From a virus (Duplodnaviria; Caudoviricetes): 64,000 nt of DNA. Positions 8,773-64,000 of this stretch are shown piece by piece (position 1 is the stretch's first letter; every line of letters begins with the position of its first letter). The notes below the pieces were generated by a model that searched no databases, had not been told where the DNA came from, and was given only the letters and a program-made list of their open reading frames with translations. The stretch lies in IMG/VR virus record IMGVR_UViG_3300033498_000048, positions 128,001 through 192,000 of that record; one strand, 5' to 3'. The position numbers and the translations under genes are program-made.

Positions 8773-8802
8773 ATTATACGTTTAAATTGATTGTGTTGTC
8801 AA
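8773..8802 (-). promoter_or_regulatory. Sigma70-like early promoter TTGACA-18-TATAAT
   Basis: Exact hexamers with an 18-bp spacer. Confidence 0.65.
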
Positions 8803-21910: not shown

Positions 21911-22258
21911 TTAATTAGTAGCTGAATATACCATTTTTAATATATCATCTTTTGATAAGTCTTTAATATTTACTATATTGTCCAATAGCCAATCGAAACG
22001 TGTTTTCCAAACATCTTGGAGTTTATTGGTTTTATTTGCTAGATGTATTTTGATGTTTTCCATTGAATCTGTTGTAAATATTGGAACCCACTCACTTATT
22101 GAGTTTTGTCGTTCTAATAATCTATAACAATGAATTGATGGATTATCTATGGCAATGTTTCCACGAATAGAAACTATATTCTCTTCAAATATCGGTTCGG
22201 TCATATTATTCTTCCATATATTGATTTGTGAATCCAAGCAATACAGTTGAGTCGTCAT
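21911..22258 (-). CDS. Hypothetical protein
   Basis: ORF; true start probably MTEPIF. Confidence 0.55.
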   Translation of the reverse strand: MTTQLYCLDSQINIWKNNMTEPIFEENIVSIRGNIAIDNPSIHCYRLLERQNSISEWVPIFTTDSMENIKIHLANKTNKLQDVWKTRFDWLLDNIVNIKDLSKDDILKMVYSATN

Positions 22259-57695: not shown

Positions 57696-58337
57696 ATGTT
57701 AGAAATTACAGTGAATGCGGATGTTAGGAATTTTAAAGTTGGAGATGAGTTTAAATTCCAGTTTGATAATGGTTGCAGTGTTATGGTTGGTGAAAATGGT
57801 AGCGGGAAATCAACTATCACAAATGCTATTAGAGGACATTTCATGTCACTCGATAAAGCAAAAGGTGTTGGGAATAGCTTAAATAACTATGACATTGTAA
57901 CCTTATCTAAATCGTTTGATGTAAAAACTGATTATGATTATTGCTTTGTTATTGATTTTCACCTAGATAATCCATTAGCATCAAACAACGCATACGATGC
58001 TGTTGAGTTTTTGATGAATGGTGGATATGCTGTTAAAGATAAGTCACATGGAGAATGTAGTCTACATATGTTGGGTAAACTATTACAACAACTTGACAAT
58101 TTTAGAGCTATTAATAAACTCGCTAAGATTTTGTTGATATTGGACGAACCAGAAAGTGGTATGTCCATTAAAAAACAATTCAAATTGGCAAGTGTTATGA
58201 TTCCTGGAATCATAAAAAAACACAATGTTGATATGTTAATTATTACTCACAACACAATTATTACTTCAAGTGTTGAAACTGTTTTTGATATGGAAACAAA
58301 ACAAATAGTTCCTGTTAATGACTATATTTATAGTTGA
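57696..58337 (+). CDS. Stand-alone ABC-type ATPase (COG3910-like)
   Basis: GENGSGKST, SHGE signature, LILDEPESGMS, IITHN. Confidence 0.8.
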   Translation: MLEITVNADVRNFKVGDEFKFQFDNGCSVMVGENGSGKSTITNAIRGHFMSLDKAKGVGNSLNNYDIVTLSKSFDVKTDYDYCFVIDFHLDNPLASNNAYDAVEFLMNGGYAVKDKSHGECSLHMLGKLLQQLDNFRAINKLAKILLILDEPESGMSIKKQFKLASVMIPGIIKKHNVDMLIITHNTIITSSVETVFDMETKQIVPVNDYIYS

Positions 58338-59039: not shown

Positions 59040-59068
59040 TTGACACAAAATTAACTTCGTAGTATATT
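59040..59068 (+). promoter_or_regulatory. Sigma70-like promoter TTGACA-17-TATATT
   Basis: Upstream of the glycosyltransferase operon. Confidence 0.65.
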
Positions 59069-59103: not shown

Positions 59104-60267
59104 ATGATAAGAAAAACGGTAAAAAACTTACATGGCAACGAAGTGTGGGCTGACAAAAGGTATATTTCGATTGATTGCCCTGAAGACCATTGGAAAAATA
59201 TGCCAGATTTCAAAATAAAACCATCAACTGTGTATTGTGCTATATCATTTGAGTTTGAATCACAAGATGATGTACAAACATTTGCCAATACTATAGGACA
59301 AACAATCCACCCTGGAACAAAATCAATATGGCATCCTAAATTAAATATCGGTGATTTTTCAAAAGTTAGATATGTTTCAAATCGTGAACCAGAAAATTCT
59401 ATGAAATATCCAATTTATATTCCATCTAAGGGACGACATAAAAACAGATTAACATCCGACACTCTAATCAAAATGGGTATTAAGCATTATATAGTGGTTG
59501 AAGAATCTGAATATGATTTATATCTTAAAGTATGTAATCCAGATTTTGTAACAGTATTGGTTATTCCACAAAGCTATTTTGATGAATATGAAACATTGGA
59601 CGATTTAGGGTCAACAAAATCAAAGGGACCAGGACCAGCAAGAAACTTTGCATGGGAACATTCAATTTCAATGGGACATAAACGACATTGGGTCTGTGAT
59701 GATAATGTTCAAAATTTTTATCGACTTAATAATAGCAAACGTGTTATTGTTTCAGATAGTGCGATATTTAGAGCAATGGAAGACCATGCTGATAGTTATG
59801 AAAACGTTTATATGTCTGGTCCACACTATCGTTTTTTTGTTCTTCCAAATAAAATCCGTTCTCCATTTTCAATTAATACTAGAATTTACTCTACAAACTT
59901 GATTCTAAATGATATTCCATTTAGATGGCGTGGTAGATATAATGAAGACACGATTTTATCGTTAGATATTTTAGCATCTGGGAATTGTACGTTCCAATAT
60001 TATGCGTTTTTGAGTGGTAAAGTCAAAACTCAATCGATTAAAGGTGGAAACACAGATGAGTTCTATTCAAAAGAAGGGACTAAACCGAAATCACAAATGC
60101 TAAAAGATGTTTACCCAGACATCACAGACGTGGTGTGGAAATTCAATCGGTGGCATCACATCGTTGATTATTCCAAATTTAGAGGCAACAGATTAAAAAC
60201 AAATATTGACTTTGTTCCAAATATCAGTGACAATAACTATGGAATGAAATTGGTGGAAATAAATTAA
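59104..60267 (+). CDS. GT-A glycosyltransferase of the TET-associated/GREB1-like family with an extra N-terminal domain
   Basis: YPIYIPSKGR, GPGPARNFAW, WVCDDN, WRGRYNEDT..SL..L, QSIKGGNTDEFY, RWHH.VDY. Confidence 0.75.
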   Translation: MIRKTVKNLHGNEVWADKRYISIDCPEDHWKNMPDFKIKPSTVYCAISFEFESQDDVQTFANTIGQTIHPGTKSIWHPKLNIGDFSKVRYVSNREPENSMKYPIYIPSKGRHKNRLTSDTLIKMGIKHYIVVEESEYDLYLKVCNPDFVTVLVIPQSYFDEYETLDDLGSTKSKGPGPARNFAWEHSISMGHKRHWVCDDNVQNFYRLNNSKRVIVSDSAIFRAMEDHADSYENVYMSGPHYRFFVLPNKIRSPFSINTRIYSTNLILNDIPFRWRGRYNEDTILSLDILASGNCTFQYYAFLSGKVKTQSIKGGNTDEFYSKEGTKPKSQMLKDVYPDITDVVWKFNRWHHIVDYSKFRGNRLKTNIDFVPNISDNNYGMKLVEIN

Positions 60268-60429
60268 ATGACTACTAGAAAAATATTAATACGTTTTGCA
60301 TCTCAAAGTGATGTGGATGATTTTATCAAAAAAACTGGCATTAACATCAATACTAAAATGACACGATGCAAATATGCTCCAAAACTATCATTAAAGCGTT
60401 TCATTAAACGAAAAACTGAGGAAGTATAA
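60268..60429 (+). CDS. 53-aa protein resembling the glycosyltransferase N-terminal domain
   Basis: Manual translation MTTRKILIRFASQSDVDDFIKKTGININTKMTRCKYAPKLSLKRFIKRKTEEV; starts right after the GT stop and overlaps the next ATG. Confidence 0.6.
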   Translation: MTTRKILIRFASQSDVDDFIKKTGININTKMTRCKYAPKLSLKRFIKRKTEEV

Positions 60430-60653
60430 TGAAAACTAAAGTTGTATTTAAAATTCTTGAAGGTAATGTAATTGCATTGTTTCCAGATATTCGTGAAAGT
60501 GGCAATACAATTCTCAGTTATATGCACATCGGTCAACATAGTGCAGCAGCTAGATGTTGGTTATATGAATTAGTTGATGCCACTGTTGCACAATATAGTC
60601 AACTCAAAAAAGAGTTAATTAGTATTGGGTATGATTTACAGCTAATTAATTAA
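60429..60653 (+). CDS. Conserved phage hypothetical protein (IALFP...SY.HIGQHS.A...Y..L..EL...GY)
   Basis: 74-aa coupled ORF. Confidence 0.7.
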   Translation: MKTKVVFKILEGNVIALFPDIRESGNTILSYMHIGQHSAAARCWLYELVDATVAQYSQLKKELISIGYDLQLIN

Positions 60654-60670
60654 TGTGTTAAACATTTCCA

Positions 60671-61021
60671 TTGGAAATGGCTTTAATTGACAGAATGGAG
60701 CTTGAAATGTGCGATTTAAAAAAAGAGTGTAGTGTGTTAAATGATGTGCTTAAAGAGCAGCATTTTGGGTTAAGTTTTTACGATACCCATTTTGATATAA
60801 TCCCAGAATTAAAGTTGTTTAGGGTGATAGATATTGCTATAGCTGCATACACATTAGATAGTGCAATTAATTATTATAAAAAGCATATAGGTGTTGATGT
60901 TGACATTAACGATGGAGACGTGTATGAAATTTCTAATTCTCAGATGGACAATTATGTTGGTGTGACACTGAAGTCCAAAACGGCAAAAGAGTTTGATTTT
61001 TTATTTAGGTGGGAGATATAG
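60671..61021 (+). CDS. Hypothetical protein
   Basis: 116-aa ORF. Confidence 0.6.
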   Translation: MEMALIDRMELEMCDLKKECSVLNDVLKEQHFGLSFYDTHFDIIPELKLFRVIDIAIAAYTLDSAINYYKKHIGVDVDINDGDVYEISNSQMDNYVGVTLKSKTAKEFDFLFRWEI

Positions 61022-61024
61022 GTT

Positions 61025-62188
61025 ATGTTATACATTCCAAGTCAATTAAGAATTGGTTATAGAAATGATGGTGAATCATATAATGGAAAGCTAGGTTACA
61101 TCATACACATGGACAATAGAAAAACAGTTCCTAATGGGTGGGAAAAATGGAGAAATAAAGATATACACCCGATGGATATTCAAAATGTTCCAACCACTGG
61201 GTTTAAATTAGGTAAGGCAGTTGGTGGTGGACGCTCGTGGAATGCAAGACAAGATTGGGTTAGGGTTTATGACCCAAGAGGTTTTGAATTTGAAATATCG
61301 GTTGATAATTTATTGATTATATTGGGAAGCTCCAATAGTATCCATAAAGAATTGGAAGGTGAATTTGTTTATTCGTGGAATAGACAGCAATTAGTATTAT
61401 TACCAGTAGATTCAATTGAATACCGAGATGCTATGTTAGATACTATGGTTGTAACGAGTGGTAAAAAGTTCAAAAAAACAGATTTGATTATTGGACACAC
61501 ATACACGTTTAAAAACAAAAAACAATATGTGTATATTGGTAGCGATTATAATACACATAGGTTTTATGACACAACTAGGATTGATAATTCTAGGGATAGA
61601 GTTAAACTTGGTCTTGACTTTTTTGACTATTTCTACGAGACAACATCACTAACACAACTGTTGTACATATCAGATACTATTGATGATAATTGGACTGAAT
61701 TATCACACCAAATGCAATTTTCACCAGTTTTTCACGTTTGTACTTCCGTAGAGGAAGTTGAATTTGATACTGAAAACATACCTGAATTATTGGAATATAT
61801 GTCTACAGGTAAATCAATTAGACTTAATTTTCAACCAATTCGAGTTAAATGTAGTAATAAGACTGTATTTGGTCCAATGGAGATAAACTTAAAAGGCAGA
61901 TTGGACTGTGTTAAAACATTGATTCCATGGGATTATGCTATGGTTAATCCAGATAGAGAAGTATCAGATGGTGTTTTTGAATTTAGATTCCCAACGGAGT
62001 ATTGTTATAAATTCAAATGTGAACCATTATTTACCAAACAGAATGTACATTACAATGTAGTAACACTTACACTAGATGAATTAATATCGAAATTTTATGT
62101 GGTATATTTAAAACATAATTTATCTAACGGTAACTATTATTATAGTGGAAAGTTAGATAATAGACGGAACAATAATTATGAAAATTAA
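61025..62188 (+). CDS. Conserved jumbo-phage hypothetical protein (RVYDPRGFEFEI..NL)
   Basis: 387-aa ORF. Confidence 0.75.
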   Translation: MLYIPSQLRIGYRNDGESYNGKLGYIIHMDNRKTVPNGWEKWRNKDIHPMDIQNVPTTGFKLGKAVGGGRSWNARQDWVRVYDPRGFEFEISVDNLLIILGSSNSIHKELEGEFVYSWNRQQLVLLPVDSIEYRDAMLDTMVVTSGKKFKKTDLIIGHTYTFKNKKQYVYIGSDYNTHRFYDTTRIDNSRDRVKLGLDFFDYFYETTSLTQLLYISDTIDDNWTELSHQMQFSPVFHVCTSVEEVEFDTENIPELLEYMSTGKSIRLNFQPIRVKCSNKTVFGPMEINLKGRLDCVKTLIPWDYAMVNPDREVSDGVFEFRFPTEYCYKFKCEPLFTKQNVHYNVVTLTLDELISKFYVVYLKHNLSNGNYYYSGKLDNRRNNNYEN

Positions 62189-63419
62189 TAAACTTGAAAT
62201 TCAAAATTTCAAATGTATTGAAAATGCTACAATTAAATTTAATTCCAGTATGACAGTTTTAATTGGTGATAATGGAACTGGTAAAACAACAATATTAGAT
62301 GCGTTGTCTTTTGTATTGGGGGCTTTTTTAACTGGGATTGATGGAACTCCAAAACGACCATTAAAAACAACTGAGAAAAGACAGATTCACAACAAAGATG
62401 TTTTTGTAGTTCAATTGCCACTTAGAACAACTGTCCAGTTGTCGCTATTGGGTGAAGATTATTGTTATTACTTACAATCGACTAAAGAGAGTGGTAATCC
62501 AAGCTATATTAATGCAAAAAAGTTAATTGACAAAGCAAAAGAGTTGACTAAACAAGTTAGGTTTGGAGTTGGAGTTAATTTGCCATTAATGGCTTATTAT
62601 AATACTACATTTGAACACAAAAACAAAGAAGTCGCATATGCAAAAATGACATCACGCTTAATAGGTTACGATGATTGTTTATTTCCAGAGGTTGTATCTT
62701 ATAAATTTTTAAGTTGGTTTAAAACATTTGAAGATTCTAAATTAAAATTTAATAAAGATGATGGCTTATATAAAGCCTTTACTAATGCTATTAGTAGTAT
62801 GATTCCTGAATGGAAAAACATTCATTATAATTGGAAAGAAGATGATATTGTTGGACAATTAGACAATGTTGGTTGGACATCTTTTAGAATGTTAAGTGAT
62901 AGTTATAAACACATTATTCGCATTGTAGCTGATATTGCTTATCGTGCAATTAAATTAAACCCTCACTTAGGCATCAATGCTGTTACAGAAACAGAAGGTG
63001 TTGTTTTAATTGATGGAATTGATACACACTTGCATCCCAAATGGCAACGAGCAGTGGTTTCTGGTTTTAAAAGAACGTTTCCCAATATTCAATTTATTGT
63101 TACGACACATTCGCCACAATTGTTAAGCAGTGTTCATAAAAACGATATATTTATCTTAAAGGGTAATAAATTACATCAACCATCCAGTAATCCGATTGGT
63201 CGAGATTCCAGTGATATTTTGGCTGAAATTATGGACATTACTAAGCGTCCTGATGATATTCAAAAACTATCCGATAACTATTTTTCTTTACTGAATAAAA
63301 AATTATTTGAAGAAGCTCAAGAAGTTCGTAACCAACTGTTGGATAAATTAGATAGCAAAGACCCTATTTTTATTAGAGCAGATGCAATGATGACACGATT
63401 GCAATTGTTGAAAAAATGA
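62178..63419 (+). CDS. PtuA/Septu-like ABC ATPase with degenerate catalytic motifs
   Basis: GDNGTGKTT, LSDS (canonical LSDG), VLIDGIDTHLHPKWQ (canonical DEIDxHLHP), QFIVTTHSP, and a PtuA-like C-terminal helical tail. Confidence 0.75.
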   Translation: MKINKLEIQNFKCIENATIKFNSSMTVLIGDNGTGKTTILDALSFVLGAFLTGIDGTPKRPLKTTEKRQIHNKDVFVVQLPLRTTVQLSLLGEDYCYYLQSTKESGNPSYINAKKLIDKAKELTKQVRFGVGVNLPLMAYYNTTFEHKNKEVAYAKMTSRLIGYDDCLFPEVVSYKFLSWFKTFEDSKLKFNKDDGLYKAFTNAISSMIPEWKNIHYNWKEDDIVGQLDNVGWTSFRMLSDSYKHIIRIVADIAYRAIKLNPHLGINAVTETEGVVLIDGIDTHLHPKWQRAVVSGFKRTFPNIQFIVTTHSPQLLSSVHKNDIFILKGNKLHQPSSNPIGRDSSDILAEIMDITKRPDDIQKLSDNYFSLLNKKLFEEAQEVRNQLLDKLDSKDPIFIRADAMMTRLQLLKK

Positions 63420-63441
63420 CATATTGTGTTGTTATAATAGC

Positions 63442-63505
63442 TTGGACACACCGACAATCACTGGAGTTAAACGATATGTGAATAATACTGTCATAGTGTG
63501 TCCAA
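63442..63505 (+). other. Stem-loop, candidate small RNA
   Basis: TTGGACACAC...GTGTGTCCAA 10-bp stem with an inner GACA/TGTC pair, directly after an extended -10 (TGTTATAAT, 63430-63438). Confidence 0.4.
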
Positions 63506-63543
63506 CAACAAAACGTTGCTTAGAACTAAAATAAAAATATGTT

Positions 63544-63572
63544 TTGACAACGTTTTTTAAACCTATTATAAT
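63544..63572 (+). promoter_or_regulatory. Sigma70-like promoter TTGACA-17-TATAAT
   Basis: Perfect consensus. Confidence 0.75.
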
Positions 63573-63606
63573 ACCACGCATTAGTTACACCAACTGTGAG
63601 AAGAAT

Positions 63607-63975
63607 ATGAGTACAACTTTACAAGCACTAGACAGATTGATTAAATGTCACGATTCATTAGCATATCCAAACAAACCACATAATAGTCCAGCAATAGATA
63701 ACGAGTTAATTGAGCTGTTTAATAATGATGCTAGTTATTATGCAGTTGATATTGATGCTATTAGAGATGGAAGTTATTTTGGAAGACAATGTTCAATTGC
63801 ATTTTCAGAGTCTCCAATTATGGGAACTTCAATTGAGCTTGAAATTGCTTGGGATAATACAAATATTGCTGTTTATACTGCTAACCATAATGGTTATTGG
63901 GTTGCACCATACACAACTAATAAAAACGTATTAAAGGCTTGGAAACAGTTTTTAAAGAAACATTTATTCATTTAA
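63607..63975 (+). CDS. Hypothetical protein
   Basis: Start moved to MSTTLQ, downstream of the promoter. Confidence 0.6.
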   Translation: MSTTLQALDRLIKCHDSLAYPNKPHNSPAIDNELIELFNNDASYYAVDIDAIRDGSYFGRQCSIAFSESPIMGTSIELEIAWDNTNIAVYTANHNGYWVAPYTTNKNVLKAWKQFLKKHLFI

Positions 63976-64000
63976 TTGGAGATATATCATATCACTAACC

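Follow-up and report, generated by a model that had tools for sequence, protein, structure and literature searches.

Septu is a widespread defence, as are the type I-A retrons related to it. Neither PtuA nor PtuB does harm by itself, and activity resides in the PtuAB complex. Assembly of PtuA is driven by the ATP bound at its dimer interface, Septu immunity is lost when Walker A or Walker B is mutated, and an altered PtuA of retron Ec78, PtuA-E396Q, assembles with PtuB and was used to obtain the structure, yet gives neither defence nor toxicity (PMC12819146, PMC13376987, PMC13096335). Cryo-electron microscopy of the Ec78 and Septu complexes revealed a bundle of nine helices in which a pair of PtuA C-terminal extensions (CTEs) holds the C-terminal domain of a single PtuB between them, and mutations in the interface between the PtuA CTE and PtuB abolish toxicity (PMC12819146, PMC13376987). 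Both Septu and retron Eco7 cut tRNA-Tyr in the variable loop, and phages that bring tRNA-Tyr of their own escape (PMC11555353, PMC13096335). Two Vibrio-phage proteins, Anhur and Svarog, also counter Septu (10.1101/2024.06.14.598830), by mechanisms that are unknown and with no reported direct interaction with PtuA or PtuB (10.1101/2025.06.06.658234). Here we describe a phage gene for PtuA that has no ptuB. It lies in a stretch of 64,000 nucleotides, the window, which corresponds to bases 128001-192000 of the IMG/VR virus record IMGVR_UViG_3300033498_000048, and its product joins the ATPase head of one Septu subfamily to the PtuB-docking extension of another, with the Walker B glutamate and the signature glycine both replaced. 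The record is 305,782 bp long, carries direct terminal repeats and is rated complete; the carrier is a lytic-type jumbo phage of ~306 kb, the GC content of the window is 31%, and the public runs that hold the PtuA gene are microbial-mat metagenomes.

The open reading frame (ORF) encodes a genuine PtuA homologue, since it matches a PtuA profile from end to end and its predicted structure superimposes on 8EEA. An earlier reading of this DNA, made by a model from the letters alone (the first-pass annotation), had taken the ORF for a full-length ABC ATPase of the PtuA/Septu kind and had proposed a search with the PADLOC PtuA profiles. That search bears it out: PDLC00278 is the best match (E 1.7e-115, residues 1-411 of 413), six more PtuA profiles match below 1e-77, and the Pfam matches are AAA_15, AAA_21 and SMC_N. 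The AlphaFold2 model, with a mean predicted local distance difference test (pLDDT) score of 85 and a predicted template modelling (pTM) score of 0.82, contains the ABC ATPase head, the insertion and the helical CTE of the PtuA fold. Its best Foldseek matches are 8EEA_D/8EE4 (E 1e-31 to 5e-33, TMq 0.74-0.79), and E. coli Septu PtuA 8EEA_D is matched with E 4.8e-33 and TMq 0.79. A search of the phage's own genome identified this ORF as its sole PtuA; a third ORF (339 residues; genome C1:115360-115524, minus strand; locus L003) has a weak match to the Walker A region of PtuA, with E 7.6e-4.

Megablast of window positions 61000-64000 against GenBank phages returned no match, tblastn found just distant PtuA-like genes of at most 31% identity, and the closest relative among other viruses and metagenome proteins is 54% identical overall. 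Because a PtuA-like gene is absent from 80 related phage loci (732 kb) around homologues of the TET-associated glycosyltransferase gene, which heads the transcription unit containing PtuA, we conclude that PtuA is a lineage-specific addition to this phage.

Set against Septu PtuA (8EE4/8EEA; PDLC00278, PDLC00271), the phage protein has the full-length homology, the fold, Walker A, the Walker B aspartate, the H-loop and the helical CTE in common with it, but fails on three features that define a functional Septu component, namely the Walker B glutamate (hhhhDE), the signature glycine (LSxG) and an adjacent PtuB; it also reads phenylalanine in place of Arg145 and is a mosaic of two subfamilies. 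PtuA-E396Q of retron Ec78/Eco7 (PMC12819146; PDB 9NNB) is altered at the same Walker B glutamate, residue 280 in our numbering, and behaves as we propose for the phage protein. It is, however, an engineered glutamine in a retron-type PtuA that has an N-terminal extension and a helical flap, whereas the phage carries a natural glycine in a Septu-type PtuA, together with two more ATP-site changes and no retron. The phage protein aligns from residue 1 to the Septu-type profiles, and just residues 190-408 match ATPase_I-A. Judged by this alignment it is not a type I-A retron effector of the Ec78/Eco7 or Ec83 kind, and a search of the phage genome for a reverse transcriptase (RVT_1) gave no match.

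The phage PtuA is a mosaic of a PDLC00278-type head (subfamily A) and a PDLC00271-type extension (subfamily B). In a sliding comparison of 30-residue windows, residues 1 to ~310 are 55-84% identical to subfamily A (P0002-P0009) and 7-50% identical to subfamily B, while residues 316-413 are 62-80% identical to subfamily B (P0123, P0129, P0136, P0143) and 10-30% identical to subfamily A; these four B proteins have heads unlike that of the phage, and their last 100 residues are much the same as those of the phage. By BLASTP, the head is 60-62% identical to its best A matches, which show no detectable similarity in the extension, and the extension is 66-75% identical to its best B matches, whose heads reach 25-27% identity. 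At the DNA level the head is 71-72% identical to A loci L004/L005 and the extension 78% identical to B loci. No other protein with an A head and a B extension was found (0 of 344 relatives). The microbial-mat runs that hold the phage gene also contain Septu genes of the A and B types, with 81-86% DNA identity to the two halves. In one mat run, the match of an A-type contig (~82%) ends at 63115, which is the crossover point, and B-type contigs (83-86%) match 63086-63419 and then pass into the start of PtuB; this run is probably the source of the phage genome.

The first-pass annotation had likened the C-terminal tail to that of ATPases partnered by an HNH nuclease, and the comparison agrees, as the relatives of the CTE (PDLC00271) are followed by PtuB in every bacterial case examined. 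In subfamily B both the signature (LS[EQ]G) and Walker B (DE) are normal, and the ptuA gene is followed, with an overlap of 4 nucleotides, by one for a PtuB of 240 residues (PDLC00332, E about 1e-40). A description of the CTE as unusually diverged and relaxed after loss of PtuB was ruled out, because the CTE derives from the other subfamily and is the best-conserved part of the protein. GC content cannot date the acquisition of PtuA, since the Septu genes of bacteria match the phage in AT-richness. The subfamily A Septu pairs at L004/L005 lie between housekeeping genes, one between ahpC/pgk and pnp and the other inside a mur/fts cluster, and have a GC content of about 31-33% against 39-40% in their flanks.

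The ATP-site motifs were compared with those of the 119 nearest relatives and of 149 diverse representatives from an exhaustive search. The intact Walker A (GDNGTGKT) and H-loop (TTHSP, with His311), the Walker B sequence IDGIDTHLHP in which glycine replaces glutamate, and the signature LSDS in place of the glycine form had all been read correctly from the letters. Position 280, encoded by GGA in the phage, is glutamate in 118 of 118 nearest relatives; among the diverse set it is glutamate in 145, aspartate in 3, lysine in 1 and glycine in 0, and in total glycine was seen there in 0 of 268 relatives. Position 242, encoded by AGT, is glycine in all 119 nearest relatives and in 148 of the 149 diverse ones, the last having serine. 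GGA and AGT are each one transition away from GAA and GGT, and contigs of the same metagenome that are related to the phage gene have A at 63016, which gives GAA. A third departure, beyond those listed by the first-pass annotation, is the replacement of Arg145 by phenylalanine; by analogy with other ABC ATPases, residue 145 may be taken as the Q-loop position. The phage protein keeps 27 of the 31 columns that are conserved in at least 93% of the diverse PtuAs, including Walker A, S240, D279, the HLHP block and H311, and breaks four (R145F, G242S, E280G, L297F); as many are broken in just 4 of the 149 other sequences. T49A, R99L, F314Q, Q317S, E323D and S355T were considered as broken invariants of subfamily A and rejected, being variable across the wider family or lying inside the foreign part; E. 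coli PtuA likewise reads HSPQ.

In the nearest bacterial relatives an HNH gene directly follows PtuA. A PtuB profile was built from the ORFs downstream of bacterial PtuA genes; across 79 bacterial loci it matches 66 of the 68 such ORFs that have the size of PtuB. The same profile, run with all filters off against every six-frame segment of the complete phage genome, gave a best E of 0.62, and no match to the genome was obtained with two A-type and two B-type PtuB proteins, Pfam HNH or PADLOC PDLC00332. The claim that the gene is an orphan with no cognate nuclease elsewhere thus holds for the complete genome, and so does the observation that a promoter and an unrelated ORF follow it (Table 1). 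Homology to B loci passes the PtuA stop codon and may reach ~18 nucleotides into a former ptuB; the match is 11 of 15 positions to L167 (P about 0.01), P is 0.05 for L102 and three other loci are not significant, so that the statistics for this trace are weak. Other viral contigs with a true PtuA (L007, L008, L010) are ordinary phage-borne Septu systems, unlike the gene described here, because they keep the DE motif and have PtuB.

To the extent that a model can tell, the extension retains the look of a PtuB clamp. Two copies of phage residues 305-413 were predicted together with the B-type PtuB of L102, with our own alignments supplied, in three runs. The CTE pair and PtuB scored 0.64 against 0.01 for the best control, a mark reached by 58 of 80 solved complexes and by 2 of 110 mismatched pairs; at least 78% of contacts agree among the three runs, the partner pLDDT is at least 85, and the predicted interface lies between CTE residues 365-411 and PtuB residues 148-234. 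Because complexes of this kind have already been solved and the alignments were our own, the prediction speaks for likeness to the clamp rather than for binding. Given that the known role of the CTE is to clamp PtuB and that the CTE is well conserved here, the phage has kept in good order the module that holds a protein it does not encode.

Pairwise ratios of nonsynonymous to synonymous substitution (dN/dS), calculated by the Nei-Gojobori method, show no strong relaxation, a possibility that the first-pass annotation had raised against its own proposal. For the CTE, dN/dS is 0.14-0.25 against B-type genes, which among themselves give 0.12-0.28; for the head it is 0.27-0.31 against the two nearest A-type genes, which give 0.21 with each other. 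The 413-codon frame is open, at a stop chance of 7.4% per random codon. In a first tree the phage branch measured 1.18, or nine times the median, a value discarded as inflated by the foreign extension.

Table 1. Features of the PtuA gene and its surroundings, in window coordinates.
Feature	Position	Strand	Basis or detail
PtuA homologue, full-length, 413 aa, ATG start	62178..63419	+	ORF, PADLOC profile, fold
Head: ABC ATPase domain and insertion, residues 1-312, subfamily A (PDLC00278 type)	62178..63113	+	sliding-window identity, BLASTP
Walker A GDNGTGKT, residues 30-37, intact	62265..62288	+	G30, N32, G35, K36 match invariant columns
Codon 145 TTT (Phe), not Arg	62610..62612	+	Arg in 143/146 relatives; block after strand 137-142
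Signature LSDS, codon 242 AGT (Ser), not Gly	62892..62903	+	codon at 62901-62903
Walker B VVLIDG (IDGIDTHLHP), codon 280 GGA (Gly), not Glu	63000..63017	+	Asp279 kept; codon at 63015-63017
Crossover zone: block FPNIQFIVTTHSP, including H-loop His311, common to both subfamilies	63078..63116	+	A/B identity swap
CTE, residues 314-413, subfamily B (PDLC00271 type), PtuB-docking module	63117..63416	+	identity, dN/dS
Possible remnant of the first ptuB codons directly after the PtuA stop (weak)	63420..63445	+	alignment to B loci
Perfect sigma70-type promoter TTGACA-N17-TATAAT where ptuB would lie	63544..63572	+	
ORF without family match after the 63544 promoter	63607-63975		
Near-consensus sigma70 promoter (11 of 12), head of the six-gene unit ending in PtuA	59040..59068	+	
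Upstream genes of the PtuA unit: glycosyltransferase, three small ORFs, 387-aa protein	59104..62188	+	
TET-associated glycosyltransferase, first gene of the PtuA unit	59104-60267	+	PF20691 E 9e-40; PHROG 842
387-aa protein, overlaps the PtuA start by 11 nt	61025-62188	+	

The reading we favour, at a little less than an even chance, is that the phage PtuA is a decoy, poison or sink subunit directed against the PtuA-PtuB complex of a host Septu. The protein would be made early in infection. Pairs of its CTE would capture host PtuB of the PDLC00271 type into inert complexes, and its head may co-assemble with host PtuA of the PDLC00278 type and so spoil the ATP-controlled switch. In an ABC dimer, each ATP site draws its Walker motifs from one subunit and its signature from the partner subunit. 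Since the sites are composite, a subunit defective in both Walker B and the signature would harm both ATP sites of a mixed dimer, and we infer that the two changes occur together because each would damage the opposite site. The resulting complexes would resemble those of PtuA-E396Q, assembled and with neither toxicity nor defence, and the cleavage of tRNA-Tyr and the nicking of DNA by PtuAB would not be switched on. An extension of this proposal, which we consider distinctly improbable, treats the mosaic itself as the adaptation: recombination at the shared H-loop block would have joined the head and the clamp of two local host Septu subtypes, giving one early protein that joins PDLC00278-type PtuA and captures PDLC00271-type PtuB, that is, a dominant-negative Septu inhibitor of dual specificity. 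Each poisoned dimer would then lose both ATP sites, with the Walker B and signature defects falling on opposite composite sites.

Several points weigh against the decoy proposal. Neither binding nor the timing of expression nor anti-defence activity goes beyond inference, and the presence of a matching Septu in the host is an assumption. A bacterial PtuA at locus L171 (a Logan contig; P0247) has Walker B LIDDIDTHLH and signature LSESYR, with a ptuB overlapping the gene end; its combination of aspartate at 280 and serine at 242 with a PtuB partner suggests that serine alone is tolerated. On its own, Septu PtuA shows no measurable ATP hydrolysis in vitro (PMC12819146, PMC13376987), and being hydrolysis-dead may therefore matter less here than in retron PtuA. 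Of the first-pass description of the motifs as disabled, what stands is the replacement of the Walker B glutamate and the signature glycine; the functional sense of the word is tempered by these two observations. The signature change could also weaken ATP-sandwich dimerisation and thereby impair the very CTE pairing on which capture of PtuB would depend. With respect to selection, dS is 0.8-1.8, near saturation, and pairwise values average the whole divergence, so dN/dS cannot prove constraint after the loss of ptuB; in a tree of the head only, the terminal branch of the phage is 0.48 against a median of 0.12 (about 4x), which fits partial relaxation. The first-pass annotation had looked to phage homologues that share the glutamate-to-glycine change at low dN/dS. 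The ratio is indeed low against bacterial genes, but no second phage copy with glycine at 280 was found among viruses and metagenome proteins, which leaves the change with no evidence of recurrence. The mosaic, the best-conserved CTE and the predicted docking nonetheless make the decoy reading more specific. The observation is real, and the proposed mechanism is specific and testable, if unproven.

An alternative that we hold to be unlikely, though deserving of real weight, is that the gene is a newly orphaned remnant of a Septu weapon borne by the phage or its donor, for example against competing phages, from which ptuB was deleted, and that the ATP-site changes are the first decay of a gene with no present function. 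Complete phage-borne Septu systems do exist (L007, L008, L010), a weak trace of a ptuB start follows the stop codon, no other branch of its clade is as long as that of the phage head, whose dN/dS is slightly raised, and pairwise dN/dS cannot date the loss of ptuB. Decay of this kind sits poorly with a frame still open over 413 codons and 27 of 31 strongly conserved columns kept. The CTE, which would be of no use in the absence of PtuB, is the best-conserved part, and its dN/dS resembles that of bacterial genes with a partner; the three substitutions are confined to ATP-site motifs, with the remaining conserved core untouched; and the start of PtuA is coupled to the upstream gene, with a phage promoter placed neatly where ptuB would have been.

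Loss of function is not required if the protein is a working ATP-binding scaffold with another partner, either a host PtuB redirected for the good of the phage or an unrecognised phage effector, that serves superinfection exclusion, host shut-off or some other role instead of inhibiting Septu, an explanation we rate as rather unlikely. Retention of Walker A and Asp279 makes ATP binding plausible, Septu PtuA is an ATP-bound scaffold with no detectable hydrolysis (PMC13376987), and the 11-nucleotide overlap with the 387-residue gene suggests co-expression. Defence-like genes do occur in jumbo phages. That neighbour and the other genes of the unit nevertheless match no nuclease or defence family, the 387-residue gene occurs without PtuA in another phage (L195), and this type of CTE is paired with PtuB in every bacterial case examined; moreover, loss of the catalytic glutamate abolished PtuAB function in the one system tested (PMC12819146). 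The last explanation is that this is an ordinary active PtuA whose odd residues are harmless and whose partner nuclease is too divergent to detect. A partnered bacterial PtuA with aspartate at 280 and serine at 242, and the absence of in vitro ATPase activity from Septu PtuA, speak for it. We nevertheless consider it very improbable, given that glycine is found at 280 in none of the relatives, that PtuB is easily detected in relatives (66/68) and reaches no better than E 0.62 in the phage, and that the place downstream holds a promoter and an unrelated ORF instead.

The nearest precedent for the decoy proposal is offered by viral homologues of cas genes that act as anti-CRISPRs (Katz et al., 10.1101/2023.06.24.545427). 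There too an orphan defence subunit on a virus is proposed to poison or sequester the host complex, and early or anti-defence-like genes lie nearby. The cas homologues belong to another defence system and their activity was shown experimentally, whereas that of the phage PtuA is proposed; as far as we are aware, no mosaic origin was described for them (10.1101/2023.06.24.545427). The extra tRNA-Tyr route has the same target as we propose for the phage PtuA, but it makes good the loss of the cleaved substrate and leaves the complex itself unblocked. This phage has 17 tRNA genes in a cluster outside the window, among them two dissimilar tRNA-Tyr(GTA) genes with different variable arms (genome C1:20253-20343 and 21941-22032), which, by analogy with the phages that escape in this way, may be a second, independent answer to Septu.

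In the literature searched we found no description of a phage-encoded PtuA decoy. If the proposal is true, this would be the first Septu inhibitor with a predictable mechanism, the counters reported to date being confined to extra tRNA-Tyr and to Anhur and Svarog, and the principle of a stolen subunit used as a poison would be widened from CRISPR to ATPase-nuclease defences. The mosaic further suggests a route by which inhibitors could be built, with phages recombining modules of host subtypes at conserved motif blocks, and a systematic search for such cases is possible. For work on ATP control of PtuAB activation, a PtuA that is inert by nature yet binds PtuB would be a helpful reagent as well.

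The tightly packed unit (59104-63419, plus strand) that lies behind the near-consensus sigma70 promoter at 59040 ends with PtuA. Perfect TTGACA-N16-18-TATAAT sites occur in the window at 8773, 14170, 38220, 50334, 58714 and 63544 (6 found, 0.31 expected), which argues for a canonical sigma70 in the host and for strong early promoters. T4-type phages have early promoters of a similar kind, and on that analogy early expression of PtuA, as the first-pass annotation supposed, is plausible. No RNA runs are listed among the public runs that hold the gene. Between the PtuA stop codon and the next promoter, an inverted repeat with a long loop (GGACACAC ... GTGTGTCC; window 63444-63503) was not recognised as a canonical terminator by scan.

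Among the other genes of the PtuA unit, no match to a nuclease or defence family was found. The 387-residue protein was considered as an alternative effector and set aside: it has no Pfam or PADLOC match and just PHROG 2475 (function unknown), the Atlas results were uninformative, and a pattern scan for relatives found none. PHROG 842, which the glycosyltransferase matches, is beta-glucosyl-HMC-alpha-glucosyltransferase, and the gene has 267 relatives in IMG/VR; its presence implies that the phage DNA has glycosylated, hypermodified bases. Lastly, 4 kb upstream of PtuA, at window positions 57696-58337 on the plus strand, there is a very short ABC-type ATPase (213 residues) that has a Walker A motif and whose Walker B, LDEPE, is intact. 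In PADLOC it is matched best by the N-terminal ATPase portion of GajA (E 3.4e-14) and by other defence ATPases, it has neither a nuclease domain nor a partner, and to judge from these matches it could be another defence-derived fragment.

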